From: Nostoc sp. PCC 7120 = FACHB-418
Lineage (GTDB): Bacteria > Cyanobacteriota > Cyanobacteriia > Cyanobacteriales > Nostocaceae
Length of the DNA stretch: 32,000 nt
Reading direction: 5' to 3'
Assembly: GCF_000009705.1 (NCBI RefSeq)
Contig: NC_003240.1
Span: forward strand, 150,001-182,000
Shown here one piece after another: positions 9,231 to 32,000 of this stretch (its first letter is position 1; each line of letters starts with the position of its first letter). Both the position numbers and the translations under genes were made by a program. Under the pieces are notes generated by a model. The model ran no database searches and had not been told where the DNA came from. It saw only the letters and a list, made by a program, of their open reading frames with translations.

Positions 9231-9243
9231 GCAACCTATTCAA

Positions 9244-14447: not shown

Positions 14448-14457
14448 GAGTGACTGT

Positions 14458-14850: not shown

Positions 14851-15001
14851 GAATTTAAAAACAAAAAACAGTCAAATATATCCATACGAGTCCAGCACCC
14901 AAAAAATGAACCCGTACTGCAATCAGTATTGAGATGCTAATCTATTAGGTAACATTAAATTGTGGGATAAATTCTCTGCTAGATTAACTGCTCACAGCTA
15001 C

Positions 15002-16186
15002 CTATGCAGCACGAACATTACCCTTTTTTCTATTTGTAGACACTTCCATTGCTTTCATTTGGTTCTTATAATCCTCCCAAGTTTTTTCAAATACGTCAGA
15101 CTCGTACATCCGCAATAAAACCTCCTCTTTATCAGTTAAATTTGGTAGTTTTAACAACTCCGCTAAAGACACTTGAACTGGAAAAACATCCCTAAATTTT
15201 TCCATTAAGTGAAGTATTCTTTCTCTCTGTTCCGCAGATGGTTCGTCTTGCAACTCTGCATAAATCTGTCGCGGACGTAGATTCACAATTTCTAAGTTCA
15301 TGTTTACTAAATTCCTCAATCCAAAGACAACAAATTCATTAGTTATACCTATAACACGCCCCACAATTTCCAACTCTGTCCGCAGTCTTTTCTTAAATTG
15401 ATATACTTGACCAACTTGGAAACGCCGAAACGGATTGCGATCGCCATTCCGCATCCAAGCGATACCATCACTTATACTACCTATCTCATCCGCTTCAATC
15501 AGGTCTATAACCTGGTCACAGATATCTTGATTGCAAACAAACTTGTACGCTGCATCAATACTTCGGTTAAATTCCGCCTCCAGTGCCACAACTGCCTTAA
15601 ATTTTTGAAGTTCTCTTAATTGAGAAATAAAATCAAATACTTTCTTACCCTTGTGATAACTACCAACACTTATCCTTAGATTCTCTGAAACCTCCCGAAT
15701 CACAGGTTTACCTTTTTTTAATTGAGAGTTACTCTCATCTATCGAAGTGTTCAAATTTGAATACTTCGATTCATTCAAACGACGAGCGCTTTCCCTCTGT
15801 CTTTCTTTCGCTTGGGGACGAAGTACGCTCTCCCAGTACTGCCCCTCATGAAATTTCTGGTAATGAGTCTTCCCTCCTTCCCGGTGGAGATTAAAGTCAA
15901 GCACTAGTTTCAAATCTTCTTCAGGCGAGCCAGACTCGACAAATTCCACTTTCACAGCAGAAATTCCCAACTGGCGAGCTATCTGCAATCGGCACTTACC
16001 TGCCAAGACCACATTTACACCAGTACGTGCAGTTACCTTCAAAGATTCCAGAATCCCTTTTTCCGAGATACTTTTTTCCAAAGCTGGACGATTCTCATTT
16101 TCACCATAGATTTCTATCAGCTTCGGATGAACAACTAACTCCGCAGGAGAAATATATACAATTGCCGGATTATGCACCTCAGACAT
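15002..16186 (-). CDS. ParB N-terminal (ParB/sulfiredoxin) domain protein
   Basis: ISPAELVVHPKLIEIYG...LEKSISEKGILESLKV...VVLAGKCRLQIARQLGISAVKVEFV fits the ParB-N box layout (GxxRxxAa..lG). The roughly 280-aa C-terminal part is unassigned. Confidence 0.8.
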   Translation of the reverse strand: MSEVHNPAIVYISPAELVVHPKLIEIYGENENRPALEKSISEKGILESLKVTARTGVNVVLAGKCRLQIARQLGISAVKVEFVESGSPEEDLKLVLDFNLHREGGKTHYQKFHEGQYWESVLRPQAKERQRESARRLNESKYSNLNTSIDESNSQLKKGKPVIREVSENLRISVGSYHKGKKVFDFISQLRELQKFKAVVALEAEFNRSIDAAYKFVCNQDICDQVIDLIEADEIGSISDGIAWMRNGDRNPFRRFQVGQVYQFKKRLRTELEIVGRVIGITNEFVVFGLRNLVNMNLEIVNLRPRQIYAELQDEPSAEQRERILHLMEKFRDVFPVQVSLAELLKLPNLTDKEEVLLRMYESDVFEKTWEDYKNQMKAMEVSTNRKKGNVRAA

Positions 16187-17244: not shown

Positions 17245-17751
17245 TTAAGCAAGCATTTCCACACACTCGACCACTTGAGCAGAGGTCACTTGTTGCGCGA
17301 TCAGAAAGTCAACGAGTCCATCAAGTTTTTTACGGTTGTAGACGGTAGAATAGCCTTGGATTCGGCGTTCTTTGCAGAACTGTCGCAGCTTCCGCGCACC
17401 TAAATCCAAAAGCTTCTTCCTTTCTTCCTTAACGTCTACTAGCACAAGCTGTCTAGCTTCATCCGCAACCCCAGTTTCAACAACTGGCGGAGCAGTTTCA
17501 ATAATGGAAGATTCTGGTTTAGAAAATTCTTCCCAAACAGAAGCAGCACCAACACCAGTCAAATCCCCATGAGTTTCCAAAACTGGCAACTCTTCAGAAA
17601 TCACCCCAACGCTATTACTAACTTGAAGTGATACTGATTGAGCAGGGACAAATATCACATAGAAGATTGGGAAGACCATCAAAAACAACTCGATTGGAAA
17701 CAAAACATCGTTAACAGATTGCACAAAAGGCGATATTGCAAAAGCAGACAT
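17245..17751 (-). CDS. Membrane-anchored hypothetical protein with a C-terminal HeH/SAP (Rho_N-like) motif
   Basis: N-terminal hydrophobic helix (LFPIELFLMVFPIFYVIFVPA). The C-terminal LDLGARKLRQFCKERRIQGYSTVYNRKKLDGLVDFL resembles the LxxLRxxaxxxgIxGxsxxxKxxLIxxL HeH motif. Confidence 0.55.
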   Translation of the reverse strand: MSAFAISPFVQSVNDVLFPIELFLMVFPIFYVIFVPAQSVSLQVSNSVGVISEELPVLETHGDLTGVGAASVWEEFSKPESSIIETAPPVVETGVADEARQLVLVDVKEERKKLLDLGARKLRQFCKERRIQGYSTVYNRKKLDGLVDFLIAQQVTSAQVVECVEMLA

Positions 17752-18022
17752 AATGTGGTTCCTCCATGAATTACTGATGGGCGGCGTTTAGCGGCTTACC
17801 ACCCAGTAGCGGGGGAAACCCCCGTACTGAGTGAAAGCTTTTACACGTATCCCAGCCAATAGCAGGAGAAAGGAGGATAAATTGCCTTTTTAAGCAATTA
17901 GATGAACTAAGTTTTCCAAAATTTGCAGATGTTGAATTCTAGAGATTATTAATTCAAAATACGGGAATTGCAAAAATGCGATTTTTCCGGCTTGTACTCG
18001 CAGCTTTTAGAAACCTCCTTAT

Positions 18023-19288
18023 TCATCTCAACACTCCATATTTTTTACTCTTAAGGTAGTTAACGTAGCTAACCAAGTTGTAGTTATATCTGAGTTCTTG
18101 AGGAACGAAAGTTGAGTAAGGATGCAGCGATACACCATCACGACGAAAGCAATGACAGGGCGCATATATATCAAAAAAGATAGATATTTCATCACCATCA
18201 ACTTCGATTTGAGCTATGCCCTTAAGTTCCTTTGCAAACTCTAAAACTTGTCCTGATGCTACATAGTCAAAGACCACTACATTTCGAGTACGGAAATACT
18301 GGATGTAAGAAAGAAGTGTTGCTTCCATACCAAGCTCAAGCAATCTGTCAGAATGTTTAAGCAAGATACCGGAATAGGAAAAAGAAAACCTACGGTTAGC
18401 GTATTCATCCCACAAGATAAGATTGCCATAAAATTTGTAAATATTCGCTTGATTGAACGATATTTCTCTATTTAAATTTTCGACAACAGCATCATCTTCA
18501 AATGGGAACAACGCCTTACGTTCATCCCATTGCTTATCTGGACAGCAACCATTTTCAAACCATCCATGTGGATGAATACCACAAACAATATTATTGGCAC
18601 CATGCAGTAAATTACACCCAGCACATACTCGCAAATAGCAAGAACTAAATTCTTCGCTATTAACTGCATTAATATAGCGTCGGTGTATATCTAAATGCTC
18701 CTCTAAAGCTTCACAAGATAAAGGTTTATACGAGGAGAATGTTTGTCCAATTAATCTGTCTGGATCGGTTTCATCATAGATTACTGCCAAGTCGTCAATT
18801 TGGTGAGAACGTAATTCTTCGTAAAGTACGAATTTCCGATATGGTTCTTCCTCAAATCTAGAAACAACCAAGCACTTTGAATCAGAATGTCTTGCAAAAT
18901 TCATCACCGTGTAAGTGTAAATTGAAGGCAGACAATCAGATTTTTCAGAGTTCTCAGCTTTTGTTAATACAAGCGGTTTTATGTCAGCTATTTTTGCAGT
19001 TTCTCTACTCGAATTAGTTTCCTCCGATTCTTCAACAATGCTTAAGAAAGCACCACCCAAGGAAGCAAAAATAATTCCGGTAAAGCCCAATACAATAGCA
19101 CCAGTGCCAATATAGACAATTTGTTCAGAGCGTTCTTTCTCGACGATTGGGAATCCGCCCTTAGCTAAGTACAATAAGCCCAAACCAGAAAAAGTTGCTA
19201 CAGTGCCTAAAGCAATAGCAGTCAAAGACACCATTCCAAAAGCAGCATTAAGGTTTCTCAAGCCATTAAACGCAAACTTCTTCAACAT
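18023..19288 (-). CDS. Membrane protein (2-3 N-terminal TM helices) with a Cys/His-rich cytoplasmic or extracytoplasmic domain
   Basis: 421-aa ORF with TM segments in the first roughly 85 aa. It carries the cluster CYLRVCAGCNLLHGANNIVCGIHPHGWFENGCCPD. Confidence 0.7.
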   Translation of the reverse strand: MLKKFAFNGLRNLNAAFGMVSLTAIALGTVATFSGLGLLYLAKGGFPIVEKERSEQIVYIGTGAIVLGFTGIIFASLGGAFLSIVEESEETNSSRETAKIADIKPLVLTKAENSEKSDCLPSIYTYTVMNFARHSDSKCLVVSRFEEEPYRKFVLYEELRSHQIDDLAVIYDETDPDRLIGQTFSSYKPLSCEALEEHLDIHRRYINAVNSEEFSSCYLRVCAGCNLLHGANNIVCGIHPHGWFENGCCPDKQWDERKALFPFEDDAVVENLNREISFNQANIYKFYGNLILWDEYANRRFSFSYSGILLKHSDRLLELGMEATLLSYIQYFRTRNVVVFDYVASGQVLEFAKELKGIAQIEVDGDEISIFFDIYAPCHCFRRDGVSLHPYSTFVPQELRYNYNLVSYVNYLKSKKYGVLR

Positions 19289-19559
19289 AATTTATCCCTC
19301 CAAAATGCAGGTCACAAGATTTTTAATTACTCTTGCCCCGGCACAAATTGGGATTTGCTGAGAACTACACTACTAACCTACCCCTTACTCTATTAACAAT
19401 TCCACAACTATTTAATAGATATGTACTCGTTAATTTTCAGTCTCAGTAGTAGTTTCATTCCCAATGGTGATAGCAAGAGTCGAACTTGCTTTGTTGCTGA
19501 AAACAACAATCTAACCGAACTGGAATATCACCAAATAATAATATTTAGAAATAGCATAT

Positions 19560-20039
19560 CTACTTTCCAAAAGTCCAAGTATTAGTTTCGTTTAATTCCA
19601 ATTCTTCAAAACAGTTAACAAAACCCGTAAAATGAAAACATCTTAGCGGCAGCCGAGATATTAATAGTAAAGAAAAATTTTCTAGTTGAGCCAACTGTTG
19701 TAATCTCAATAAATCGTCGCTAAAACTATCGCTAACAAAGTGCAATCTATCAAAATTATCAATCACAAGTAGTCTATTGAATCCTTCAGATAATTCGGTT
19801 ACTATATTTTGCCAATCCTGCTGGTAGTACAAATCAAAACTCATAGGAATAACATCAAATAAATGAGCCACACTAAAAGGATATTCAAGATTGAGATAAA
19901 CAGATTCTAAAGTAATATCTTTAAGTAAACAGTTTTTAACAGTAAAAGTCTTACCAATATCCTGTTTACCCCATAAATTAACATTCTTGCCTGCATTTAG
20001 TTCACCAATCAACCAAGTATATTCTTTATAACGTAACAT
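19560..20039 (-). CDS. Minimal P-loop ATPase (AAA/ORC-like)
   Basis: Walker A WGKQDIGKTF and Walker B LLVIDNFDRL in a 159-aa ORF, 21 nt downstream of the RusA-like gene. Confidence 0.6.
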   Translation of the reverse strand: MLRYKEYTWLIGELNAGKNVNLWGKQDIGKTFTVKNCLLKDITLESVYLNLEYPFSVAHLFDVIPMSFDLYYQQDWQNIVTELSEGFNRLLVIDNFDRLHFVSDSFSDDLLRLQQLAQLENFSLLLISRLPLRCFHFTGFVNCFEELELNETNTWTFGK

Positions 20040-20060
20040 TACTATTATCCTTTAGATAAA

Positions 20061-20537
20061 CTACAATTGTTTTGAGATTAAATGTGTGATTTTTTGATTG
20101 TGTCTTTCTAAACTACTTCTGGAGAATTGGTTAGATACAATAAAGTTCTCTAATAAAAAATCAGGTGATTGTGAAAGTCTTAACAGCACACCATCATCAC
20201 CACTACTGCGATGATAGTAATGTACAACAGGTGATTGGATAACTGTCAGGTTATCGTTACGAATTGCTCGTCCTGTAACTAGCCCATCCATAATAAATTT
20301 AGCGGCAGCAGCTACATTATCACTATCTCGTGCAAAATTTTTGAGATACCAATGAAACTCAATCCACACTGTACTATCTAAACAAAATTCACAGTCTCTA
20401 ACAAATTCACCAATTAAGTTTGTCCAGTACTTCTTAAGTTCAGCACTAGCTTGCCAACTCGACCGTGCCTGGTTAATAATTTCGTTCATACAAGGGGGTA
20501 AAGGCATGGTTAGTTCAAATATCATCTTCACCGCCAC
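20061..20537 (-). CDS. RusA-family crossover junction endodeoxyribonuclease-like protein
   Basis: LTMPLPPCMNE (compare E. coli RusA LPWPPSNN) and RDSDNVAAAAKFIMDGLVTGRAIRNDN (compare [25 protein letters not shown]). The start overlaps the FtsK-like stop, and alternative in-frame ATGs lie at 20525 and 20507. Confidence 0.65.
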   Translation of the reverse strand: MAVKMIFELTMPLPPCMNEIINQARSSWQASAELKKYWTNLIGEFVRDCEFCLDSTVWIEFHWYLKNFARDSDNVAAAAKFIMDGLVTGRAIRNDNLTVIQSPVVHYYHRSSGDDGVLLRLSQSPDFLLENFIVSNQFSRSSLERHNQKITHLISKQL

Positions 20538-22704
20538 CTTTAAAGTTATTTAAAAATTCTTCGACAACGTTTCTAAATTTCTTGTATGACCTACCATCTT
20601 GACGGGATAAATTGAATACTGCTTTGACAATTTCATCAAGTTGATAGCCTTTTTGATGCAAATTCATAATTGAGTTTCTTGCTTCTTCGTCAAGTTGCAC
20701 CTTAAAACTAAAGCTGCCCTCAAAATCAGTCTTAGATTGCTTAGTTTTAGTAGCAGTAGTGGCTTTAAATTTACCATTATCATTACTACTACTCTCGTCA
20801 TACAGACTAGCGACAAATTCATCAAAATCTAACCCAGATTTCCATGCTGTATAAGGATCGTTCTGGTTTTTTGCTTCCAAGAGTAATTGCTGGAAGTATT
20901 CAGGGTCTTCATCGTCAGCAACATATAAAGCTTGGAGTCGTAAAACTTCAGTCGTCTTGTACAAGAAATCACCGTATCCCAGCAAATAAACCGCACGCTT
21001 GTCTTTATCGTCCCCAAGGATGATACAACTGTCTTCAGGGCGAGTTGTAACAAAGGCTGTCTTCGCTGGAAAGTTTGAACGAATCAACGGGTCTATCACG
21101 TTTTTGTCAGGTCGCTGGGTATATAACAATACATGAATCCCCGCACCACCAGCTTTTGCAAGCAACTTCATCAGCGCAGTCTCAATGCGATCGCAGTAGT
21201 TATCATCAGAAAGTAGGTCAAAACACTCGTCAATCAGACAAATCACTCGTGGCATGATGCAATCAGGTGCGAACCGTGAGTTGTACTGTGCGATCGTTTC
21301 AATACTGCTGTGGCGCTCAAATTCCTGGTAACGCAATTCCATTTCTTCGACCAAGTAATCGAGTAAGTTAGCGGTAGACTCTGCATCACGCGCAACTGGG
21401 GCAACAAGATGGGGAAGTCCATCAAATTTACCAAAGGTCACGCGCTTAACATCTGAAAGTGCCAATCGAACAACAGAAGGGGGATATCGTCGCACCAAAT
21501 ACAAGATTGCGGCTTTCTCAAACTGCGACTTTCCACCCCGCGTCCGCCCACCACCAAGGATATGAGTCACGTTATCGCTATAAAGGGGAATTTCAACATA
21601 AGTGCCATCAACATCAACACCACCGGGGATAGACACCGAATAAATGTCAGGTTCGCCGTCAAAACTAAAGTAATCACGAAAATAAGCAAATTGTCTGTCT
21701 AACCTGGGTATGTCAAATACAACTCCCCCAGGCACTACACTCACCATTGGCGCAACTTTCAAGCCTAATTCTTCACCAAGCTGCTGTACTAAGTCATTAC
21801 CGATGTCTTCTACTTTTTTATAACTAACACCTCGTTCTAGTTTTACCCTAATACGGTTAAAAGTAGGGCCATTTTTGGCATCAACATACTTAGCATTAAT
21901 ATTAAAATCTTCTAAAGTATCAACTAATAGTTTTCCTGCTTGTCCCATAGTTAAAATATTTGAGCTAACAATCCCATTATTAGCAATTTCACTATTTAAA
22001 TATTTAGTTTCTTTTAAAATAATTGAGCCATCACCTGTCACTTTTAAATCTAGTGGTTTACCTGTGGCACGCGCAACAAGCACTGCCGTTCGACAGCAAT
22101 AGTTTTTAATAAATTTATCTTTAGATTGATTGGCTAAATCAGTAAAATAACTAATTGGTTTATTATTTAATAATAAATTATAAAGGTTCTCTTGAACTAA
22201 TTCATACCCAATCTGCTTAAGATAAATATTTTTTATAGACTCAATATATTCAAATAAAGATTCAATTGGCGAACTACTAACTATCTCAATCATTTTTTGA
22301 TACACGTTATTTTGCTCCCACTGTGATGGCATTCGATGGAGATGGATATATTCAAGTGCATAACGTACAAACTCGTACTGATTTAAAGTACAGTGTTCTG
22401 CACATATTGATAATATTTCATTATCGTTCGTACCTGCAATTACTGATTCGTATATTACCTGAAATAAAAATTCTAAGTTAAATTCAACAACTGGACGTGA
22501 TAATTTTGCTCTAAAGTCAATCTGCTTTAAAACAGTTTCAGCATAAAAAACCATTGCGTCCGGTAAAGCTTCCTGTACATTCTCTATAATCTCTTCATTG
22601 CTCAAACCATCTTGTTTGGCCTGTACAATTGCAGTCCAAAGCTGTTGTTTTTGAAATTCAGTATTGTTGTTATTAATATACATTTCTAACATTACTTTTC
22701 TCAA
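20515..22704 (-). CDS. FtsK/SpoIIIE-family DNA translocase
   Basis: Walker A GGGRTRGGKSQF, Walker B VICLIDECFDLL, and the hallmark HVLLYTQRPDKNVIDPLIRSNFPAKTAFVTTRPEDSCIILG. Confidence 0.9.
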   Translation of the reverse strand: MRKVMLEMYINNNNTEFQKQQLWTAIVQAKQDGLSNEEIIENVQEALPDAMVFYAETVLKQIDFRAKLSRPVVEFNLEFLFQVIYESVIAGTNDNEILSICAEHCTLNQYEFVRYALEYIHLHRMPSQWEQNNVYQKMIEIVSSSPIESLFEYIESIKNIYLKQIGYELVQENLYNLLLNNKPISYFTDLANQSKDKFIKNYCCRTAVLVARATGKPLDLKVTGDGSIILKETKYLNSEIANNGIVSSNILTMGQAGKLLVDTLEDFNINAKYVDAKNGPTFNRIRVKLERGVSYKKVEDIGNDLVQQLGEELGLKVAPMVSVVPGGVVFDIPRLDRQFAYFRDYFSFDGEPDIYSVSIPGGVDVDGTYVEIPLYSDNVTHILGGGRTRGGKSQFEKAAILYLVRRYPPSVVRLALSDVKRVTFGKFDGLPHLVAPVARDAESTANLLDYLVEEMELRYQEFERHSSIETIAQYNSRFAPDCIMPRVICLIDECFDLLSDDNYCDRIETALMKLLAKAGGAGIHVLLYTQRPDKNVIDPLIRSNFPAKTAFVTTRPEDSCIILGDDKDKRAVYLLGYGDFLYKTTEVLRLQALYVADDEDPEYFQQLLLEAKNQNDPYTAWKSGLDFDEFVASLYDESSSNDNGKFKATTATKTKQSKTDFEGSFSFKVQLDEEARNSIMNLHQKGYQLDEIVKAVFNLSRQDGRSYKKFRNVVEEFLNNFKGGGEDDI

Positions 22705-23369
22705 TTATTAGAATGATAAAATTGAGTTAAGGACTAAAAAATTCACTATGAAAAATTGGAATAAGTGGAATGCAGAAGAAGAAAAACTTCTTGCTAGATT
22801 AGTTACAAAATGCTCAAATATTGATGAAATACATCAGGAATATTTTCCATATAGAAGTAGACAATCAGTAAAAGGAAAACTGAGGTTACTAGGATTAACA
22901 CTTGAACCACAATGGACTGTCGAGGAAGAAGAAATATTACATGAACTTTACTCTGAGCTATCACCAAAGATGATACAATCTCAGTTCATGCCTCATAGAA
23001 CTCTTCCCGCAATTCACGCTAAAGCACAAAGGCTTAACCTAAAACAACGCCATAGATGGACAAAAGATGAAATACGATACCTCAAAGATAACTATTTAAC
23101 TGAAACTTATGAGGTCATAGGAAAAAAATTAGGTAGAGACGAAGCAGGGGTAAGAGCGAAAGCTCAAGCAATGAAATTAAGAAAACTTGAGTCGTACACA
23201 GTTAATCATAATTATTTTAGCACTCCAAATTTAGAAAATTGCTATTGGGCAGGATTTTTAGCAGCTGATGGATGCATAAATTATTCAAGTCATGGTTATA
23301 TTCTAGAAGTTGGACTACAGGAACAAGATTTAGAGCATTTAAAAACATTAAAGGATTTACTTGAATGCG

Positions 23370-23378
23370 ATCATCAAA
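23370..23378. repeat. Target site duplication ATCATCAAA (left)
   Basis: An identical 9-mer directly flanks the other IS end at 24545-24553. Confidence 0.85.
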
Positions 23379-23396
23379 GGGAGCATCTCACTTTTT
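23379..23396. repeat. IS terminal inverted repeat GGGAGCATCTCACTTTTT
   Basis: Perfect reverse complement of 24527-24544 (AAAAAGTGAGATGCTCCC). Confidence 0.9.
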
Positions 23397-23404
23397 AAAG
23401 TGGC

Positions 23405-24471
23405 TCAAACAAACAATAATCCATTGAGGTAAGCACAGCGATGAGCCAGAACTTGAGGCACATTTTCTCGTTTCCATTGCGCCCCAGAAATCTTTGTTCG
23501 ACGGTCAATCTGTTTAACGGCAGATTCAACAGACCCAGAACCAATGGAACAAATTTCTTCAGCTTGATGATATTCGTAGTTGATGATGCGATGACGATGC
23601 TTATCGAGATAACGACAAAAGTTTTGTACTTGTTTACCCTGACAACCAGTAAATAAGGCTTTAGCTTCTTCGACTTGACCTTTCCATAGTAAGGCTTGTG
23701 CCTGTTTCAAGCGTTTTTGTGAACCCCCAATTTTGTGAAGGTTTTCTATCAAATGAAACCAATCAAGTACTTCTCGACGTTGTACATCAGGTGCTAATTG
23801 GTCAATAATATTCCAAATGCCGTCATGCCCATCACCAATACAAGTGACTGTACTAGCCAGTAGTTGGTCATTCACCCAATCAATCACAACCTGATTATCT
23901 TGAAAGGACGTTCCAACAGTTTTGAGATGATGTAAGCTAATCGCTTTATAGCCAAGCCACGCACATACTTCTCCTGATTGAGTCCGAATGCGGATATTTC
24001 CACCATCAACACTTAATTCTTCAACTGTATGTTCTTGTGTTGGTAATTCAAATTTCTGACGATGTACCAATCTCTGTTGACTGCTGCGGGAGATATATAC
24101 ACCCGTAAAATACTCGATATCTGATGCCGCATCTTCATAGCTGACATTCGCGCTCACCCGTAAACAACAAGTTTCTAGATATGGACTCAGTTGGCTACTT
24201 GGCTCGACTTCTAGCTCAATAGCTTGCTTGCTCGTTATTGGTAACTCTCCCAGGATACTTTTGAGTCGTCGTTGGTATCCTGCGGTGGTTCCTGTAACTG
24301 CTTCGACAAAAAAACCCCTACTTCTGGCATTACATGCTTCTGCATTTGATTCCGCACTGCTTGTTCAATTCCTGCAAGGCTCGTTAGCCTTTCTGGTGAC
24401 GTGTCTTCGTACAATATTTTAGCTATCGCTTTGACATGTTCTTGAAGAGCTTGCTTTTGTTCTGGAGTCAT
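23405..24471 (-). CDS. IS transposase (ISKra4-like) in two overlapping frames joined at a T7 tract
   Basis: ORF A (24471-24235) and ORF B (open from about 24363, running to 23405) overlap, with ORF B in the -1 frame. The overlap contains U UUU UUG (24313-24307, minus strand). ORF B carries CIGDGHDGIWN, DWFHLIENL and GSGSVESAVKQIDRRTKISGAQW, as I recall for ISKra4-type transposases. Confidence 0.75.
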
Positions 24472-24526
24472 CGTTAAGTAAATACACTCATCTTACTTAT
24501 CCTGACTGATTTTTAACCTCTTTGCA

Positions 24527-24544
24527 AAAAAGTGAGATGCTCCC
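24527..24544. repeat. IS terminal inverted repeat (right end)
   Basis: AAAAAGTGAGATGCTCCC, the complement of 23379-23396. Confidence 0.9.
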
Positions 24545-24553
24545 ATCATCAAA
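24545..24553. repeat. Target site duplication ATCATCAAA (right)
   Basis: Same 9-mer as 23370-23378, in the same codon phase of the disrupted gene. Confidence 0.85.
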
Positions 24554-25050
24554 TAGCCGAAATGCATAACTCTAATCAAAAACATCAATATCCATTTGGG
24601 AAAACCTACACTAATGGTAAAGCCTTTAGATTGAGAATAAATAGTAAACAAATATGTGATGATTTAATTGGCAGATTTAATATTACACCAAATAAATCTT
24701 TGACTCTTGAACCTCCTGTTCTAGATAATGAGCAATTGATAAAAGCATTCATTATCGGATTAATAGATGGGGATGGTGGCGTAAACTTATTCAAAGTCAA
24801 AGGAAAAGTTAATAGCATAGAAATAGACCTCACAGGAACAATAGAAGTACTCAATTGGGTAAAAAACTGGTTTGATATTTGGGTTCCTAATAATCACTAC
24901 AAATGTGCTAAACCCAAACAAAGCATGAATTCAAAAGCTTATCGATATCATGTAGCAGGAAAACGAGGAATAGAATTATGGAAAATACTATCTCAAGTTA
25001 ATGTACCTAAGTTAAAACGTAAATGGCACAAACCTTTACCCTATTTTTGA
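24545..25050 (+). pseudogene. 3' part of the LAGLIDADG homing endonuclease gene
   Basis: Contains the second LAGLIDADG motif, FIIGLIDGDGGV, roughly 105 aa after the first in the reconstructed protein. The GTG 'start' at 24532 lies inside the IS repeat and is an artefact. Confidence 0.8.
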
Positions 25051-25877
25051 CTTCCATAAACTACCAACATTTTTTGATAATAATTACGTAACTCTTCTAA
25101 AGATTTTGGGTTTTGATTGTACGAGTTGCAAATAAGACTGGCCCATACCCTACCTACTTTGCATACAGCAGTATCAAACCTTCCTGCTTCAATGTCACTT
25201 AAAGCATTATTACGACGAATATATTCAATTGCCATCTTGTCCTGAGAAGCTGGACTAAAATCTTTTAAGTTTAACTTTGGTTGAAGGTCATACCAACTTA
25301 TATCCAACATTTGATAAGCACCAGCCGCAGTCGAACAAACATTTTTACTATTAATAGGAGCGCACTGTTTCTTTAACGGGTGTGTAGAAAAATCATTAAA
25401 AGTTCCGTTAAATACTAACTTGCGATAACTTTCTGGCTCACTGGTTCCTGTTTCTGCCCAACGAATTGTTGCTAAAAAAGCACTCAAACGTGGTGAATAA
25501 AGATGTGGTAAGTAATCTCTTGCACTAACTCTTCTTTTTAAACTATTTGACGACAATGAATAAACACCAGTACCTTGAGAAATTGAGAAATAAATGCCTA
25601 AAGTAATTAAGGAAGCAGTTGACAAATGAATGGGTTGAAACCGGGATATAAATTGACGACGAGGACTGAAAATCAATCCTACTAAACCACCAACAATAAA
25701 CCCAAATTTCCAACTATCAACTGCCTTACCGAAACTACGCACTTGACAGACAGTATCCGCACCCTTTGATACCAATCCACATGGCAGTGAAGCTACTCCA
25801 TAGGAAAATGCAACAGAGCAGGCTGCACCAACTACACCTGATATAAAAATCGGTACAATTTGCATTGCTCTTGCCAA
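25041..25877 (-). CDS. Membrane-anchored glycoside hydrolase family 104 (phage lambda R-type lytic transglycosylase)
   Basis: The C-terminal half aligns by eye with lambda R: AFLATIRWAETGT (AFLDMLAWSEGT), STAAGAYQML (STGAGRYQLL), LKDFSPASQD (LKDFSPKSQD), VWASL (IWASLPG). The N-terminal half has several hydrophobic helices. Confidence 0.9.
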   Translation of the reverse strand: MARAMQIVPIFISGVVGAACSVAFSYGVASLPCGLVSKGADTVCQVRSFGKAVDSWKFGFIVGGLVGLIFSPRRQFISRFQPIHLSTASLITLGIYFSISQGTGVYSLSSNSLKRRVSARDYLPHLYSPRLSAFLATIRWAETGTSEPESYRKLVFNGTFNDFSTHPLKKQCAPINSKNVCSTAAGAYQMLDISWYDLQPKLNLKDFSPASQDKMAIEYIRRNNALSDIEAGRFDTAVCKVGRVWASLICNSYNQNPKSLEELRNYYQKMLVVYGSQK

Positions 25878-25891
25878 TAGCTAAATAACTT

Positions 25892-26590
25892 TCAACGGTT
25901 TGCTAAATATTCGTGTAAATAAGGACGAGGGTTCTGCGCTACACCATTAATCTGAACTTCAAAATGTAAATGTGGCCCTGTCGAAAACCCCGTACTACCT
26001 ACTGCTGCAATCATCTGCCCACGGACAACTTGTTGTCCCTGCTGTACATACAGCTGACTGGCATGACCATAGAGAGTAGATAAACTTCCCTGATGCTGAA
26101 TAATAACTGCTTTGCCATAACCATCCTTGTCACCCGCAAAAACCACTCGGCCAGCATCAACTGCATAAATTGGAGTACCCTTGGCTGCGCCAAAATCAAT
26201 TCCTCTGTGAAACTTGCGATCGCCTGTAATGGGGTGTGTCCGCCAACCAAATTCACTAGTTACAGGAGTACCAGCCGCAGTTGGAAAGGCAATTCGACCG
26301 TTATTTAAAACCTTATTACTAACAACAGTTCTAGGTAGTATTAGATTCTGGAGAGATTTAACTAACAATTGAGATTCAATCCATCCAGAAACCTGGGGAA
26401 TGACCATAGCTGCAATTACAACTGAGGTGGCGATCGCATATCTCCAACTTTCACTGGAATTAGTATCGGCTGTCTCATCCAAACTAGTTACAGTCGAATT
26501 ACTAACCTCCTTTTTACCGTCAGTTTCAAGGATTATTCGCATTGCCTCAACGCCTTTTTGCATTAGCAGGAGAAACCTGCCAACAACCAA
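25892..26590 (-). CDS. M23-family metallopeptidase (LytM/lysostaphin-type)
   Basis: FHRGIDFGAAKGTPIYAVDAGRV (HxxxD) and GSTGFSTGPHLHFEV (HxH), plus an N-terminal hydrophobic anchor. Confidence 0.9.
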   Translation of the reverse strand: MVVGRFLLLMQKGVEAMRIILETDGKKEVSNSTVTSLDETADTNSSESWRYAIATSVVIAAMVIPQVSGWIESQLLVKSLQNLILPRTVVSNKVLNNGRIAFPTAAGTPVTSEFGWRTHPITGDRKFHRGIDFGAAKGTPIYAVDAGRVVFAGDKDGYGKAVIIQHQGSLSTLYGHASQLYVQQGQQVVRGQMIAAVGSTGFSTGPHLHFEVQINGVAQNPRPYLHEYLANR

Positions 26591-26888
26591 TCTTTGCAGT
26601 ACTCAATACTTCCTCAAAATCATTCTGAGCTACACGGCAATCGGGAGAATTTAGGCCATCTCCGGATGTTGCAGATTCCTTAACTTTAGGGGAATAGTGC
26701 GTAGAGACAGGATTAGAAGATATATTCACGCTAGGTGCAGCAGTAGAAACAGCAGTCGGCGATAAAAATTGCAGCTTTTGTACCAATGCCACAGCATTAC
26801 GCCAGTTATAAAACTGCAAATATCCTGGTTGCAAAATATCTGCAATCCATACCAACAGTACGAACCAAAAAATTGCCTTTACCCACAT
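26547..26888 (-). CDS. Small N-terminally anchored hypothetical protein
   Basis: 113-aa ORF with the N-terminal TM helix AIFWFVLLVWIADIL. Its start overlaps the stop of the upstream ORF by 1 nt, which suggests operon coupling. Confidence 0.6.
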   Translation of the reverse strand: MWVKAIFWFVLLVWIADILQPGYLQFYNWRNAVALVQKLQFLSPTAVSTAAPSVNISSNPVSTHYSPKVKESATSGDGLNSPDCRVAQNDFEEVLSTAKIGCWQVSPANAKRR

Positions 26889-27376
26889 TATTCCAATTGT
26901 TTAACCACAGGCAGGGCAAAAGAAGGAACTTCTTTGGGTACAACTTCAATCTTCTTCCCAGATGCATATCCTGGCCCGGTATAACTGCCATTAAGGAGAA
27001 AATTCAAGAGCATTATTAACAACCACACTCCCACAGCAGCGACACCCACAGGAGATTTAATTACATCAGATAAAAAATATACTGGATACCAGCCAAATCT
27101 CCAGGGATTCTGCGGGTGTAGCCGATGTGCTTTCCAAGTCTCAATATAGGGAATTTCTATCTGAGGAACTCTCGGCTTATAGGCAGTAGGCGCATTAATA
27201 TACCTAACTTCTACGGGTTGAGTATCATAAGTGGTCATAGGAGAAACGCTAGGTTGGTGATTTACCATTCCTCCTTGCTGTACCTGCTGCAACATATTTT
27301 GCAACCGATTGGCAGGCACAATTGCTCCACCTTCAGAATAATCAACATCAAAATTACGGCGTTGATTTCTACTCAT
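26888..27376 (-). CDS. Hypothetical protein with a C-terminal TM helix
   Basis: 162-aa ORF with the hydrophobic segment VGVAAVGVWLLIMLLNFLL. It is tightly packed within the operon. Confidence 0.6.
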   Translation of the reverse strand: MSRNQRRNFDVDYSEGGAIVPANRLQNMLQQVQQGGMVNHQPSVSPMTTYDTQPVEVRYINAPTAYKPRVPQIEIPYIETWKAHRLHPQNPWRFGWYPVYFLSDVIKSPVGVAAVGVWLLIMLLNFLLNGSYTGPGYASGKKIEVVPKEVPSFALPVVKQLE

Positions 27377-27402
27377 AATATGACCTCAAATTAATTAACT
27401 AA

Positions 27403-27969
27403 CTAGCTGGCGGGTTTATTATTTATTTGGGAGTTAGTATCTTCCCAGAAATCTTCCTCTTGAAGTTGGGCGTAAAACTCTTCTGGAGATAACATTCCAG
27501 TTTGGTTTTGTACTCCATCTTCAACAACCTGATTACCATCTACTCGCCCTAATCCAGAAACAGCAGAACGAGGAGAAAATTGAACGACATTTTTAGCAGA
27601 AAACTCGTTATTAAATCTCATCCCATGAGGCGCAACTGGGGGGATTAAAGAAGGCTGAATATCAGTATTAGAAACACCAACATTAAGTTGTTGATTGCCA
27701 GAATTTCCCAAGTTATCAGAAACTTCATCTGTTTCTTCAACTGCATTGTTATAGTCAGAAATTCCCCAACCCAAAAAACAAGCAAATCCAGCCATAAATA
27801 TAACTGCACTCATCCAATGCACTCCTGAATTGGGAGATGGCATCATTTCAACCGTTGTGCGAGTTGAACCTTCCAGGGTAGTACGAATAGGGGTACGTTT
27901 GACTGCCGCTACAACATTGAGCGAACACAAAGCTATGCAAATTATCGCAGCAGCAAACTTAACATACAT
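27403..27969 (-). CDS. Hypothetical secreted or membrane protein
   Basis: 188-aa ORF with a signal-like N-terminus (FAAAIICIALCSLNVVAA) and a second TM segment (AVIFMAGFACFLGWGI). Confidence 0.6.
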   Translation of the reverse strand: MYVKFAAAIICIALCSLNVVAAVKRTPIRTTLEGSTRTTVEMMPSPNSGVHWMSAVIFMAGFACFLGWGISDYNNAVEETDEVSDNLGNSGNQQLNVGVSNTDIQPSLIPPVAPHGMRFNNEFSAKNVVQFSPRSAVSGLGRVDGNQVVEDGVQNQTGMLSPEEFYAQLQEEDFWEDTNSQINNKPAS

Positions 27970-27973
27970 GACA

Positions 27974-28816
27974 TCACTCCCCTGATTTATTAACAGGTTT
28001 TCTATTAGAAATTGGCTGGGGTAATTGCTTCTTCATTTGTTGGAGATATATTCGCCTTTCCTCCTCCTTCTGGCGTATTTTCTCGCGGATGTCTGCCACC
28101 TGTGCCATCTGCTCTACTGGATCTAAATACCCCCGCGCCCGTAATAACTGCGCCTGTGCAAGAGAGTATGGTTCTTGAGCATTCCTAATCTGAATTAGCA
28201 TTTGATTGAGATCGACTGATGGTTGAGATTCCAAATTCTGGGCGTAATCAATCGCCTCTAATTTACCCAAGATCAAAACAGCAGCAGCCCCGGTTGGTAA
28301 CTTCTCCTCAACTTTCGTACCATCGGTTTTGCGGTATCCCCAATAAAAAGTATTATTTCCAGAAGCCGCTTCTAGTAAAACATCCAGCGAGTTGAATTTA
28401 ACTATCTCCAGTGCCGGCATATAGTGAAGGCGGTAAAACCCAGATTTCTCATTAGCCTGCATTCTGGATATTTCACCCCGCAGTTGCTGTCCCCACAATG
28501 CCGCCGCTAACTGTCGCCAGCCTGTAAGAGTAGGGGCACCTTCTACTGAGGAGTAACTGGACAGATGGTCTATATTGTAGTCAGTACGGGAAAGTTTTTC
28601 TAAGTACACTTCTCGAATTTGGGCAACTTGCGCCTTTACTTGCTGTACCTCCGATATCTGATTACCTGGAATTTGTTGCTTCCATCCCACCATTAATGCA
28701 ACCGCCCCAATAACAGACAGCGCACTAACAGTCGAACAAACCGTCCACAAAGTGACATTTACCTTTTGTCTTCTTCGACTTGGTTGTTTATTTCGGACAG
28801 GTGTAGGAGTAAACAT
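27974..28816 (-). CDS. N-terminally anchored hypothetical protein
   Basis: 280-aa ORF with a single TM helix (LWTVCSTVSALSVIGAVALMV) followed by a soluble, partly helical domain. The gap to the next gene is 4 nt. Confidence 0.65.
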   Translation of the reverse strand: MFTPTPVRNKQPSRRRQKVNVTLWTVCSTVSALSVIGAVALMVGWKQQIPGNQISEVQQVKAQVAQIREVYLEKLSRTDYNIDHLSSYSSVEGAPTLTGWRQLAAALWGQQLRGEISRMQANEKSGFYRLHYMPALEIVKFNSLDVLLEAASGNNTFYWGYRKTDGTKVEEKLPTGAAAVLILGKLEAIDYAQNLESQPSVDLNQMLIQIRNAQEPYSLAQAQLLRARGYLDPVEQMAQVADIREKIRQKEEERRIYLQQMKKQLPQPISNRKPVNKSGE

Positions 28817-28826
28817 AATTTACCCC

Positions 28827-29045
28827 TCACGTATTATCAACAACCAACTGCAACTGAGGGCGCTTGTTTAACTCGCGTGCGATCGCAATTCCCGCACCAC
28901 CCACAACTATCCCAGTAAGTAGCAGCAGAGGATGCAAGGCAAGCGTGGCCCCCACTCCCAATAGCTGTCCTACTATCCCAGAAACACCCAAGTTCATTAA
29001 CAAACCACCCGCAGTGTTAACCAAAAAGTCAAATGCTGCACTCAT
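28827..29045 (-). CDS. Small glycine-zipper membrane protein (2 TM)
   Basis: 72-aa ORF with GGLLMNLGVSGIVGQLLGVGA and LLLLTGIVVGGAGIAIA. Confidence 0.55.
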   Translation of the reverse strand: MSAAFDFLVNTAGGLLMNLGVSGIVGQLLGVGATLALHPLLLLTGIVVGGAGIAIARELNKRPQLQLVVDNT

Positions 29046-29105
29046 ACCTGCTCCCTGGCAATAATGCGACTAAAATCAGTAATTGCCTTGATTTTGAAAA
29101 GTTGA

Positions 29106-29366
29106 TTAGGTTTTTTGTTCGTCCCTAGTAAACCAAATTATTACTAGTGACAAAATTAAACCAACTAATTCACCTATACCCACACCAATCAAAATTGGCT
29201 GAATACTCGGAATTTCCTGCCTCTCTTGTGTTGGGGGAACCGCTACCCATGTCCCAACCACAGTACCAGCTACTACCGAAAGTAAATTTATACCAACTGC
29301 TTGGGTAGATGTTTTTCTCAAATTAAGTAAACTCTCATCCCGTATTCGATAGCAGATGGGTAACAT
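29106..29366 (-). CDS. Small 2-TM membrane protein
   Basis: 86-aa ORF with LLSVVAGTVVGTWVAV and ILIGVGIGELVGLILSLVIIWF. Confidence 0.55.
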   Translation of the reverse strand: MLPICYRIRDESLLNLRKTSTQAVGINLLSVVAGTVVGTWVAVPPTQERQEIPSIQPILIGVGIGELVGLILSLVIIWFTRDEQKT

Positions 29367-29374
29367 CTGAGCTA

Positions 29375-30004
29375 CTATTTCTTCTGAGATTGCCCGGTTT
29401 TCGGCTGCGAGGACTTCAACTGTCTCGGCTGCGGTGTCGATGTACCGACCAACAGAGGATGAGTCTCTTCCCCCCAGTTCACCTTGCCGAAAAAATCGTT
29501 ATCAATACGCGAATTGATTCGCTCTTGCGCCTGGTTGTAACCAGCCGCAACGGAAGTATTACCTTCAGCCAGCGAACTACTGCCATGAAAAACAAATTCT
29601 TCTAGAGCAAGTGTGGAAGATTCAAGCACTACTTTATGGCGTAATTCTCCTAACTGAATTCCCCTGTCTGCATCCCGATAAAGTATTCCTACAAAACTAT
29701 CGGAGGAAGCTTGTTCTGGATCTACGCCAAATCGCTGTTTAATATACTCGCGCTTGTCGAACTTATGTTCGCCTACTTCTGATTTGCGATCGCGCATTGC
29801 AATCAAGTGCTGGGCAGCTTCTTCCAAGGACATACCTTCACGAGAAGCTATCTCTTTAAGTTGAACTAATTGCTGTTCGATTGTTTCGTCAAGCGTATCA
29901 TTTGGCTGCAAAGCTAAATCTAACAACCGACAGCAGGTACGTACTACATCAAGCGACACCTGCAAAGTCTCTGCCACTTTGTTGATATGCTTCATTGCGC
30001 TCAA
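29375..30004 (-). CDS. Hypothetical soluble protein
   Basis: 209-aa ORF, second gene of the operon. Its start region overlaps the 3' end of the HTH gene. No motif recognised. Confidence 0.6.
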   Translation of the reverse strand: MSAMKHINKVAETLQVSLDVVRTCCRLLDLALQPNDTLDETIEQQLVQLKEIASREGMSLEEAAQHLIAMRDRKSEVGEHKFDKREYIKQRFGVDPEQASSDSFVGILYRDADRGIQLGELRHKVVLESSTLALEEFVFHGSSSLAEGNTSVAAGYNQAQERINSRIDNDFFGKVNWGEETHPLLVGTSTPQPRQLKSSQPKTGQSQKK

Positions 30005-30362
30005 TTCTCCTAATTACTGATTGCACAATTGGGTTATTTTTTTCTTCATCAGATATATGCTTGGTCAAAAAGTTATAAAGGGTTAAGCCATTGACTTTTT
30101 GTAAATAAGCATCTAAGCCACCAGCAGGAATTACTTGCTGTAAATATTCCTTATACGTCAACCGCCGAATTTTGGTAGCAACGTAGAAAACATCAGCAAT
30201 CTCAACTGTTGCTGCATCAAAATATCCTCCCCGCTTTCGCGGTTTTACTATACCCGCATAGGGATACCACTTTTGTAAAGCAGAGATTGAAATTCCGTAT
30301 CTTTCGGCAAGTGTTTTTTGGGTGTAGATAACGTTTTCACATATCATCAAACTCAATTCCAA
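29949..30362 (-). CDS. Helix-turn-helix protein; first gene of the minus-strand operon
   Basis: YTQKTLAERYGISISALQKW is a typical HTH. It is preceded by a roughly 375-bp AT-rich non-coding region. Confidence 0.6.
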   Translation of the reverse strand: MELSLMICENVIYTQKTLAERYGISISALQKWYPYAGIVKPRKRGGYFDAATVEIADVFYVATKIRRLTYKEYLQQVIPAGGLDAYLQKVNGLTLYNFLTKHISDEEKNNPIVQSVIRRIERNEAYQQSGRDFAGVA

Positions 30363-30987: not shown

Positions 30988-31326
30988 TTAATCTTCTCCC
31001 AAATCAAAAGGATCAAGCACCTGGTCGTCAAGTGTACCTTTACTACTATTAATCCAAGCAGAAGCAAAGCGTAAATTGCTCCATTCGTAAGCTAAATTGC
31101 GATAATTTTCACGGCTGCGATAATGATCTACTGTACCAACTGGTTCATACATAACGCTATAGCCACAAAGATTATTAAATCCATCGGCTAAAGAACTTTT
31201 GAAAGGCGACCAATAATCTCTGGTTCCTTTTTTGGGATCAGGATTTTTTTCCAACCAAGCATTTCCCGGTTGTCGCACTTTTTCATCAAAATTACGCGGT
31301 TCTGGAGGAGGATTAAATGGCATCAT
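30988..31326 (-). CDS. HNH-like nuclease of the TIGR02646/PtuB type (Cys-poor variant)
   Basis: CGYSVMYEPVGTVDHYRSRENYRNLAYEWSNLRFASAWINSSKG follows the C.YC...DH.....W.NL....CN..K layout but lacks most zinc-binding Cys residues. I prefer the ATG at 31326, which lies 5 nt after the ATPase stop, over the overlapping ATG at 31389. Confidence 0.6.
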   Translation of the reverse strand: MMPFNPPPEPRNFDEKVRQPGNAWLEKNPDPKKGTRDYWSPFKSSLADGFNNLCGYSVMYEPVGTVDHYRSRENYRNLAYEWSNLRFASAWINSSKGTLDDQVLDPFDLGED

Positions 31327-31331
31327 CTGTG

Positions 31332-32000
31332 TTATACCTCTGATAACCCAAAATTTCTTTTCTCCGTTGTAACTATCCAACGGGGCCAAAATGGGTCATG
31401 TCCTGGTAAAACTCTTTGAAGTTCCTGATGGATTTGTGTTGGTCTTCTCAAGTGTTCTGGAAACGCATTCATATCATCATTACGCATCCAAGCCTCTGCT
31501 GCTTCAATTGCGATTTCTGCTTCTTTGGAACGGGCTTGTTTGAGACCAAAAATTTCTGAGGTTAACCATCCAACTGTATCCCCTTGTTTTGACCAAGGTA
31601 CTTCATCAAGGCTAACTTCTCTATCTTGTAATTTAAATAAAAATAGTTGATCTTCTTGCTCATTAAAATTTGGCTCTAAGGAAGCAAGAACAAGTGGAGA
31701 ATGAGTAGTTACTAAAGCCTGTATCTTCATCCTGGGTTGTAATTCTTTCACTACAGCTAAAATAGCTGGTAGAATCACTCTCTGCCAACGAGGATGTAAA
31801 TGAGATTCAATTTCATCAATTAGTAAAACTATCTGATTTACTGGCTTTTGTTGCCGTAATTCAGCAGCTTTTTTATGTTCGTACCAAGTCCACACTAGTA
31901 AATAAGCTAGTCCCAGAATACGCTTCATTCCGGCTGATGTTTGAGTGACAGGAACATTCCCATAAGGTAGGTTAACTGTAGGAATATCGCGCACATCTTC
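31332..32000 (-). CDS. ABC-type (AAA_15/AAA_21-like) ATPase, C-terminal part; the gene continues beyond the window
   Basis: Signature-like TSAGMKRILGLAY, Walker B plus Q/H region IVLLIDEIESHLHPRWQR, and H-loop LVTTHSPLVL. The frame is open to nt 32000, and no Walker A is in the window. Confidence 0.8.
   Translation of the reverse strand, partial: EDVRDIPTVNLPYGNVPVTQTSAGMKRILGLAYLLVWTWYEHKKAAELRQQKPVNQIVLLIDEIESHLHPRWQRVILPAILAVVKELQPRMKIQALVTTHSPLVLASLEPNFNEQEDQLFLFKLQDREVSLDEVPWSKQGDTVGWLTSEIFGLKQARSKEAEIAIEAAEAWMRNDDMNAFPEHLRRPTQIHQELQRVLPGHDPFWPRWIVTTEKRNFGLSEV

Follow-up and report, generated by a model that had tools for sequence, protein, structure and literature searches.

Can a cyanobacterial plasmid carry a machine of its own for moving DNA between cells, independent of any type IV secretion system (T4SS)? 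The question is raised by a row of minus-strand genes in a 32,000-nucleotide (nt) stretch of Nostoc sp. PCC 7120, called here the window, in which the initial annotation had noticed an FtsK-type translocase, two wall hydrolases and many small membrane proteins. The motor of this block is 100% identical to All7666 (UniProt FTSKL_NOSS1, BAB77309) of Nostoc/Anabaena PCC 7120 and FACHB-709; from the gene numbering (all75xx-77xx, plasmid beta) we take the window to be part of pCC7120beta. Our answer is that the operon may be a mobile-element module for T4SS-independent transfer or spread of DNA between cells, a reading whose chances we judge to be just short of even. In function it would be analogous to Streptomyces TraB/Spd or Thermus TdtA, without being a member of those families, and we infer FtsK-driven DNA transfer of a known type, built from novel components.

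Every protein of the window was mapped onto 84 related loci, with flanks of up to 10 kb. Domain searches used Pfam, NCBIfam, PHROG and PDB profiles and PADLOC, and transmembrane (TM) segments were read from a hydropathy scan; proteins of the module are named by their length in residues (p86, p72, p280, p188, p162, p113, p421 and p168). All 13 minus-strand open reading frames (ORFs) listed in the initial annotation exist where it had put them. The extent it gave to the block (19560-30362) had to be revised, since the conserved unit continues to 17245 with two further genes, p421 and p168, and thus comprises 17245-30362 minus an insertion at 22666-25101. In most loci of sufficient length in this set, which is nearly all from Nostocales, the core follows one order: the helix-turn-helix (HTH) gene HTH137, p209, p86, p72, p280, p188, p162, p113, endopeptidase, lysozyme, FtsK, the optional RusA and mini ATPase, p421 and p168, with protein identity falling to 21-45%. 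The genes are tightly packed, with gaps from the HTH gene to the mini ATPase of -56, 8, 60, 10, 4, 26, -1, -44, 14, 2336, -23 and 21 nt. Thus, the spacing of -44 to +60 nt proposed earlier holds for most junctions and fails at two: a 56-nt overlap of the longest p209 ORF with the HTH gene, where the RefSeq start is later, and the 2336-nt gap between the lysozyme and FtsK genes, which is due to the insertion.

The small ORFs are kept across genera and in most of the 84 loci, and in every one of them substitutions concentrate at the third codon position (p86 5/2/18, p72 3/1/11, p162 2/2/26). This excess between orthologues indicates real genes under purifying selection, as opposed to the spurious reading frames that the initial annotation had allowed for. 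Substitutions in HTH137 have the same bias, and the gene comes first, at 31-99% identity, in nearly all loci whose sequence extends that far; p209 is conserved at 21-98% identity. According to megablast, the block is 95-96% identical on 215-300-kb plasmids of Trichormus, Tolypothrix, Nostoc, Scytonema, Aulosira and Microchaete and 81-90% identical in Brasilonema and Nostoc C052. Motor homologues with 43-53% full-length identity occur across Nostocales (Calothrix, Rivularia, Richelia, Scytonema, Dulcicalothrix). The two halves of the module do not always agree: identity to the window in L080-L088 is mostly 70-90% for the small proteins and just 43-45% for FtsK, whereas L058-L071 show the reverse pattern. 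These opposite patterns point to recombination between a membrane-protein half and a motor half with different histories, that is, to a mosaic module. The array of Symploca sp. SIO2E9 (L092), a distant variant, has at the place of the motor a different ATPase of 570 aa (12542-14254), whose only match, to HerA/DUF87, is weak (2.5e-4). This protein resembles neither All7666 nor the putative VirB4 of a sister plasmid described below, and the contig ends about 1 kb after it.

The motor itself is a recognizable FtsK relative. All7666 matched Pfam FtsK_SpoIIIE at 2.7e-21 and the FtsK motor structure 2IUS at 2.7e-35, with about 35% identity over the alpha and beta motor domains, and the Walker A and Walker B motifs and a TQRP arginine finger are invariant across its family. 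These motor domains are preceded by an N-terminal domain specific to the family (about 250 aa) and followed by a conserved one at the C-terminus (about 50 aa). The highest scores were obtained against FtsK (117-125 bits), followed by EssC (56-65) and a TcpA-like coupling protein (48); the match to the 'DNA translocase coupling protein' 6O1Z had an E value of 6e-12. None of the dedicated family models claimed it: it scored 117 bits against the NCBIfam FtsK equivalog (cut-off 1566), 20.1 bits (E 1.9e-4) against the TraB family model NF041214 (cut-off 800), and 30-56 bits against the EssC models (cut-offs 347-778).

The wall enzymes are equally well defined. The lysozyme aligned with lambda R lysozyme (1AM7/3D3D) at 3e-16, catalytic Glu included, and matched a PHROG endolysin at 9.4e-35. 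The lambda-type enzyme is the usual occupant of its slot and is replaced in Rivularia-type loci by a pair of 111 and 241 aa. The endopeptidase slot is always filled, either by M23 or by NlpC/P60 (the latter in L006 and L009); that two peptidase folds serve here suggests that selection acts on the activity and not on a particular fold. RusA is missing from L006-type and L080-L088-type loci, where a 67-aa ORF sometimes stands instead, and the mini ATPase was found only in the plasmid lineage, L063 and L074. The domain calls made in the initial annotation were borne out by Pfam, PDB and PHROG for the M23, lysozyme, FtsK and RusA-like genes and, through a weak AAA_22 match, for the mini P-loop protein.

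Ten of the 14 core proteins are membrane-anchored, and the hydropathy scan agreed with the two TM segments proposed earlier for p86 and p72 and the anchors proposed for p280, p188, p162 and p113. No Pfam, NCBIfam or PHROG family was found for p209, p188, p162, p113, p168 or p421, even when divergent orthologues (L006, L009, L092, L093) were used. The signature protein p280, for which no Pfam, NCBIfam, PHROG or PDB match was obtained, yielded only 33 clusters in an exhaustive hidden Markov model search of 1.84 billion representatives. Its named carriers are all filamentous cyanobacteria (Nostocales, Symploca or Coleofasciculaceae), and the same run of small genes surrounds each of the named distant members (Symploca, a Coleofasciculaceae bin, Scytonema). 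In RefSeq and IMG, p280 is labelled a 'phage terminase large subunit (GpA-like)'. We rejected this label, since the protein has an N-terminal TM helix, no Walker A motif by eye and no support from Pfam, NCBIfam, PHROG or PDB profiles, Terminase_GpA included. The AlphaFold2 model of p280, built from 23 sequences, was unusable (predicted local distance difference test, pLDDT, 49).

The p421 family was found only in Nostocales, and in most loci its gene follows FtsK. The family alignment contains an invariant CxGC..HG..C..CPD motif, and the domain that carries it, read by eye, could possibly bind metal. The p421 model reached a pLDDT of 64 overall and about 80-90 in the C-terminal domain, its best part. 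When the model was compared with PDB and BFVD by Foldseek, nothing was found at E<0.001 and trivial helical hairpins were the sole matches; the p421 profile had no meaningful match in PDB.

The setting of the module is that of mobile DNA. It was found on 13 Nostocales plasmids of 215-395 kb, ten of which are typed as conjugative, with their own relaxase and mating-pair formation (MPF) genes; plasmid p1 of Calothrix PCC 7716, also a carrier, is typed as mobilizable and as lacking MPF. Chromosomes may hold several copies, three in Calothrix parasitica NIES-267 and four in Calothrix PCC 7103, and Calothrix PCC 7716 has the module in its chromosome as well as on a plasmid. In Rivularia PCC 7116 and in two genomes related to it (L006, L064, L071), p168 is followed by a tyrosine integrase that abuts an intact tRNA-Phe gene, and in C. 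parasitica (L068) an exact 44-bp copy of the tRNA-Phe 3' end lies beside the integrase, with no tRNA.

The absence of VirB4, VirD4 and relaxase, a central point of the initial annotation, was confirmed for the block, in which Pfam, NCBIfam and PHROG detected no such domain. It does not extend to the replicon, as the plasmid lineage owns a canonical conjugation set. On the 215-kb plasmid of Tolypothrix PCC 7712, which was read nearly completely and has a 95%-identical block, a MobA/VirD2 relaxase and MobB lie at 50.6-52.7 kb and the FtsK module at about 77-88 kb (79.5-87.9 kb for the equivalent of 19560-30362). A cluster at 135-153 kb encodes TrbI/VirB10, a VirD4-type coupling protein (TrwB_AAD_bind, 1.4e-29) and a 942-aa ATPase of the HerA/FtsK superfamily, probably its VirB4. 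The relaxase is thus about 27 kb and the VirB10/coupling-protein cluster about 50 kb from the block. When the window proteins were compared by BLASTP with the 18 proteins of this T4SS region, no match had an E value below 0.008. Queries with VirB4 (the 942-aa protein), VirB10 and the VirD4-type coupling protein found nothing up to 10 kb from the motor at any of the 84 loci, and the relaxase query gave a single weak match (25% identity, L075).

Taken together, a translocation motor, ten anchored proteins, swappable tethered hydrolases, carriage on plasmids and islands, the absence of T4SS and virion genes from the module, and named hosts that are nearly all filamentous cyanobacteria are best fitted by DNA transfer. 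The operon would build a conduit that spans the cytoplasmic membrane and the peptidoglycan and is powered by the one FtsK-type motor. The small proteins would form the channel and dock the soluble motor, with p421 and p168 as candidates for docking; having no membrane anchor of its own, the motor presupposes a docking partner. The hydrolases would open the septal or lateral wall, HTH137 and p209 might regulate the operon or mark the DNA, and the motor would pump double-stranded DNA of the element into the neighbouring cell. Alternatively, the donor could 'push' the DNA out, as Thermus TdtA does, for the recipient to take up. Neighbouring cells of a filament are separated by just two cytoplasmic membranes and a septal wall disc. 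A continuous outer membrane and sacculus along the filament have been described (PMC9426583), and with a shared outer membrane and periplasm a septal route would have to cross only those two membranes and the septal wall. The fuller picture, in which plasmid-borne and integrative elements of filamentous cyanobacteria pass between cells in double-stranded form by means of their own machine, with a soluble FtsK motor on novel membrane proteins and hydrolases that breach the septal peptidoglycan, is possible, with our judgement tilted modestly against it.

Several results weigh against transfer. No membrane protein of the module matches Spd, VirB, Tcp or any other family in the Pfam, NCBIfam and PHROG libraries, and 'channel' is therefore a guess from topology. 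The motor has no TM segment in 12 of the 12 family members checked, an FtsK gamma-like domain is undetectable by sequence, and the profile of the C-terminal domain matches nothing in PDB. A direct-repeat search in L006 found no left attachment site, the end of the island lying beyond the 10-kb flank, and no replication initiator was found in the core or within 10 kb of it in L006, L007 and L009. Arrays resembling clt or KOPS, defined as at least four exact 8-mers within 300 bp, were absent from the module and its flanks in the window and eight loci. Given the relaxase, coupling protein and VirB10 cluster of the plasmid lineage, a second transfer system looks redundant there. Finally, the labels of a few carriers point to hosts that are not filamentous or not cyanobacteria (Hydrococcus rivularis NIES-593, a 'Chroococcales' and a 'Methylacidiphilales' metagenome-assembled genome). 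Their copies (L011, L026 and clusters P0109 and P0187) are near-identical to the block and may be mis-binned or contaminated, or exceptions to the filamentous-host pattern. The DNA-transfer apparatus suggested by the initial annotation is thus partly supported. In its favour are the conserved order, the tRNA-Phe/integrase islands, the multiple copies and the plasmid without MPF; against it are the lack of library matches to Spd, VirB or Tcp families and the failure to detect clt repeats or a gamma domain.

One alternative, unlikely in our estimate, is that the operon serves morphogenesis and packaging in an unrecognized temperate virus that contains a membrane or is pleomorphic, after the fashion of plasmaviruses, pleolipoviruses or corticoviruses, and that may be capsid-less with a membrane envelope. 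On this view, the virion or envelope would include the small membrane proteins, DNA packaging would fall to the FtsK-family ATPase, and entry or exit to the hydrolases. The compact, integrase-linked chromosomal version at tRNA would suit such a virus, as would many small membrane proteins next to one ATPase of the FtsK/HerA superfamily and muralytic enzymes, a free-standing homing endonuclease in the operon, and RusA and lambda-type lysozyme genes of phage type. The last two had led the initial annotation to consider a domesticated phage-like module, an idea that gains a little from them and loses by their being dispensable in some variants. PHROGs recognizes only the lysozyme, FtsK, RusA and, weakly, the HTH protein. 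Capsid, portal, terminase, tail and spike gave no signal in Pfam or PHROG at the block, no such capsid, portal, terminase or tail gene is adjacent and no capsid gene lies within 10 kb of any copy, so that adjacency does not indicate a prophage; a scan of the 2.9 million contigs of IMG/VR with the family alignment found no relative. A jelly-roll capsid, spike or fusion protein had no sequence signal either, and p421, the sole well-modelled unknown (the p280 model being unusable), was unmatched in BFVD and PDB. The best phage FtsK match is to a Nostocales cyanophage, yet phage FtsK-like genes match the motor only, at 35% identity or less (35% for this cyanophage). Moreover, the ATPase is a full alpha/beta FtsK motor of 650-750 aa, as opposed to a minimal packaging ATPase of about 220 aa, and the module is stably carried on 215-395-kb plasmids.

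We regard as equally improbable that the operon is an accessory maintenance module, which would clear or segregate DNA through closing septa, resolve multimers by means of FtsK and RusA, or assist a co-resident T4SS by wall remodelling, establishment or exclusion. The relaxase and MPF genes on ten of the 13 carrier plasmids are consistent with an assisting role, and in the window the module abuts a region with ParA, ParB-like and primase-like genes. FtsK proteins normally act at division septa, and All7666 has been treated as a divisome candidate (PMC9426583). However, the chromosomal islands have no T4SS gene within 10 kb, one plasmid is typed without MPF, and RusA is optional. Segregation or dimer resolution would also leave eight to ten dedicated membrane proteins and tethered hydrolases unexplained, and FtsK is targeted to septa by an N-terminal membrane domain that this motor does not have.

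A role in protein secretion, antagonism or defence, with an FtsK/SpoIIIE-family ATPase like that of EssC/EccC or SspH and the hydrolases as effectors or assembly factors, seems less probable still. The ATPase domain does match EssC/EccC and SspH profiles, and the module has defence systems as neighbours, namely Septu in the window and DISARM in T. variabilis. The scores against FtsK are, however, far above those against EssC, the motor has a single ATPase domain with FtsK alpha, and no WXG100 or toxin-domain protein was found in the module by Pfam and family searches. No PADLOC system matched p421, p168 or the mini ATPase; a known defence system was rejected, as PADLOC matches the generic ATPase domain only, via SspH. 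Least of all do we expect the lysis cassette of a prophage remnant (holin-like 2-TM proteins and endolysins) linked by chance to an FtsK gene: two small 2-TM proteins do stand upstream of two muralytic enzymes, with PHROG endolysin and RusA matches, but such cassettes have 3-4 genes. Here, purifying selection has maintained fourteen genes in one order in different genera, at identities down to 21-45%, which is unlike decaying remnants, and further phage genes are lacking beside the operon at all 84 loci.

The features of the window are collected in Table 1.

Table 1. Genes and other features of the window, listed in the direction of transcription of the module.
Feature	Position	Strand	Remarks
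PtuA of Septu, C-terminal part	31332-31994		PADLOC 8.9e-104; runs off window end
PtuB of Septu	30988-31389		PADLOC 1.6e-44
HTH137	29949-30362	-	first gene; putative regulator/DNA-binding protein; weak Pfam HTH_3, residues 12-32
p209	29375-30004	-	209 aa, soluble, no TM segment; no Pfam, NCBIfam or PHROG match
p86	29106-29366	-	86 aa, 2 TM segments (hydropathy); conserved
p72	28827-29045	-	72 aa, glycine-rich, 2 TM segments (hydropathy); 43-99% identity across loci
p280	27974-28816	-	280-aa signature protein; N-terminal anchor, one TM segment (residues 26-44)
p188	27403-27969	-	188-aa membrane protein; signal/anchor segment and second hydrophobic segment; conserved
p162	26888-27376	-	162 aa, TM segment near C-terminus; 41-99% identity across loci
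p113	26547-26888	-	113 aa, N-terminal anchor, fast-evolving; 26-98% identity across loci
M23 peptidoglycan endopeptidase	25892-26590	-	membrane-anchored, TM 53-71; Pfam Peptidase_M23 4.8e-36
Lambda-type lysozyme / lytic transglycosylase	25041-25877	-	membrane-anchored, N-terminal TM segment
Secondary insertion	22666-25101		outside module; LAGLIDADG/Myb gene split by ISKra4-type element
LAGLIDADG/Myb homing-endonuclease-like gene	22748-23398 and 24532-25050	+	two pieces
ISKra4-type element	23379-24544		1166 bp; transposase remnants on - strand
All7666, FtsK-type DNA translocase	20515-22704	-	soluble; Pfam FtsK_SpoIIIE and FtsK_alpha
RusA-like Holliday-junction resolvase	20061-20537	-	optional; PHROG 1.4e-17; weak match to E. 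coli RusA 1Q8R
Mini P-loop ATPase	19560-20039	-	159 aa, optional; weak Pfam AAA_22 match
p421	18023-19288	-	core protein, 421 aa; N-terminal TM hairpin and Cys/His motif domain
p168	17245-17751	-	last core gene; 168 aa, N-terminal anchor; no profile match
ParB-like protein	15002-16186		394 aa
731-aa protein	12252-14447		weak primase match; AEP-like motifs by eye
Rpn-family nuclease	10461-11420
ParA	9244-10152
Second P-loop protein	8415-9230
DUF6753	7739-8359
Giant protein, C-terminal 1886 aa	5-5665		2584 aa in Tolypothrix plasmid; no Pfam, NCBIfam or PADLOC match

The insertion of about 2.4 kb is missing from the Tolypothrix PCC 7712 plasmid, where the lysozyme and FtsK genes are 10 nt apart, and on plasmid C of T. 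variabilis an intact 381-aa LAGLIDADG/Myb gene stands at the same spot on the opposite strand. A scan for promoters and terminators gave counts like those of shuffled sequence, and a search for direct or inverted repeats between genes, around p421 and ahead of the HTH gene, yielded nothing convincing. In one locus (L085) an 8-mer cluster was seen outside the module. The Septu pair lies directly upstream of the module, at the position taken by DISARM genes on plasmid C of T. variabilis. On the other side, a plasmid maintenance region (7739-16186) adjoins the module. A GC content of 0.46-0.48 was noted at 3-5 kb of the window, as against about 0.36 in the surrounding sequence. The chromosomal islands have a variable left arm (L006 1-4238, L007 1-1734, L062, L064, L071) that encodes a DNA methylase, a member of the Alr2735 family (PF27288/PF27301) and a protein of about 200 aa; Rivularia-type left arms have two more genes, for a 197-aa protein whose NikA-like match is below threshold and, after it, for one of 276 aa. 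A Prim-Pol/DUF5906 gene adjoins the distant variant L093.

We found no publication that describes the module; in the literature all7666 appears solely as a putative divisome FtsK or cell-division gene. It is listed among cell-division genes, with Alr3799 as a separate chromosomal FtsK candidate in Anabaena (PMC7766704), and All7666 was tested as the putative divisome FtsK in a bacterial two-hybrid (BACTH) interaction study (PMC9426583). Since All7666 is plasmid-borne, lacks a TM domain and is encoded within a mobile-element operon, Alr3799 is the likelier divisome FtsK, and All7666 is most likely a mobile-element protein. This is a practical correction for divisome studies that use All7666 as 'the putative FtsK'. 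Cyanobacterial conjugation is almost unstudied experimentally (PMC4027160), and the presence of the module on plasmid beta of PCC 7120, the genetic model of filamentous cyanobacteria, makes the transfer reading directly testable. A functional module would define about ten new membrane-protein families and would explain both the sharing of large plasmids, about 95% identical over the block, across Nostocales genera and the multiplication of islands within genomes.

How, then, does the module compare with known systems? It is least like the type VII secretion systems. FHA and TM modules are typical of EssC/EccC, whereas All7666 is a single ATPase domain with FtsK_alpha, has no TM segment and is accompanied by no WXG100 match. 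With the divisome FtsK/SpoIIIE it shares the alpha and beta motor domains and the intact Walker motifs and arginine finger; unlike that protein, it lacks the polytopic N-terminal membrane domain and a detectable KOPS-reading gamma domain and is encoded on a plasmid or island within a 14-gene operon.

Among conjugation systems, the MPF_C class occurs in the same hosts and, in the plasmid lineage, on the same replicons. It consists of a compact VirB-like locus around VirB4, with VirB3/6/8/9/10 homologues (PMC4027160). The block was rejected as a member, as it lacks VirB4 and as the cluster of that kind on the sister plasmid lies about 50 kb away and has no protein similarity to it; this check, which the initial annotation had named as able to refute its idea, left that idea standing. 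The resemblance to MPF_FA (Tcp of pCW3, ICEBs1, Tn916) includes an FtsK-family ATPase that matches the coupling protein 6O1Z, membrane-anchored hydrolases (here M23 or NlpC/P60 together with lysozyme) and several small bitopic or 2-TM proteins. CwlT/TcpG of these systems has muramidase and endopeptidase activities, comparable to those of the module's hydrolases. However, MPF_FA always comes with a VirB4 ATPase and a MOB_T relaxase (PMC3548315, PMC4027160), whereas the module has no VirB4, no relaxase domain and no detectable VirB8/TcpC-, VirB6- or VirB3-like protein.

Closer in setting is ICETh1 of Thermus thermophilus, an integrative element that measures about 14 kb, is inserted at the 3' end of a tRNA and has a TdtA that serves DNA donation in 'transjugation' (PMC5365140, PMC7767461). 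Common to both are a hexameric-type ATPase of the FtsK/HerA superfamily, insertion at tRNA (here the 44-bp tRNA-Phe 3' copy), a phage-type recombinase and, as proposed here, T4SS-independent DNA export from a bacterium with an outer layer. The motors were compared by description only. ICETh1 needs a NurA-type nuclease and a restriction enzyme, whereas general profile scans turned up no nuclease domain in our core, no search having been aimed at NurA; conversely, ICETh1 has no set of membrane proteins comparable to the eight to ten found here and no wall hydrolases.

The last comparison is with the actinomycete integrative and conjugative elements (AICEs) and the TraB-Spd system of Streptomyces. 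FtsK-type, T4SS-free transfer is known in AICEs (PMC3218068), and TraB homologues have been reported only in Actinobacteria, with TraB-type transfer in their mycelial members, as TcpA FtsK-like coupling proteins have been only in Firmicutes (PMC3548315). Apart from the phylum, our module differs in its soluble motor, which falls outside the TraB family (20 bits vs 800) and is nearer to genuine FtsK. It also differs in having no clt-like repeats, no detected gamma or winged HTH domain and no identified Rep gene, in membrane proteins to which the family libraries assign no family, and in its two tethered wall hydrolases. The likeness lies in the plan of the system (PMC3218068; PMC3548315). A single motor bears the FtsK/SpoIIIE domain (PF01580), its gene is accompanied by several genes for small membrane proteins, and the module does without VirB4, VirD4 and relaxase. 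Both groups of hosts grow as multicellular filaments, and the carriers are plasmids as well as islands that have a tyrosine integrase and lie at tRNA genes; here the integrase was seen in L006, L064, L068 and L071, in three of them beside tRNA-Phe. If the transfer reading is true, the module would provide cell-to-cell transfer of double-stranded DNA in a second multicellular bacterial lineage, the first FtsK-driven conjugation or 'filament spread' outside Actinobacteria that is independent of T4SS and relaxase, and convergent with TraB/Spd of Streptomyces.

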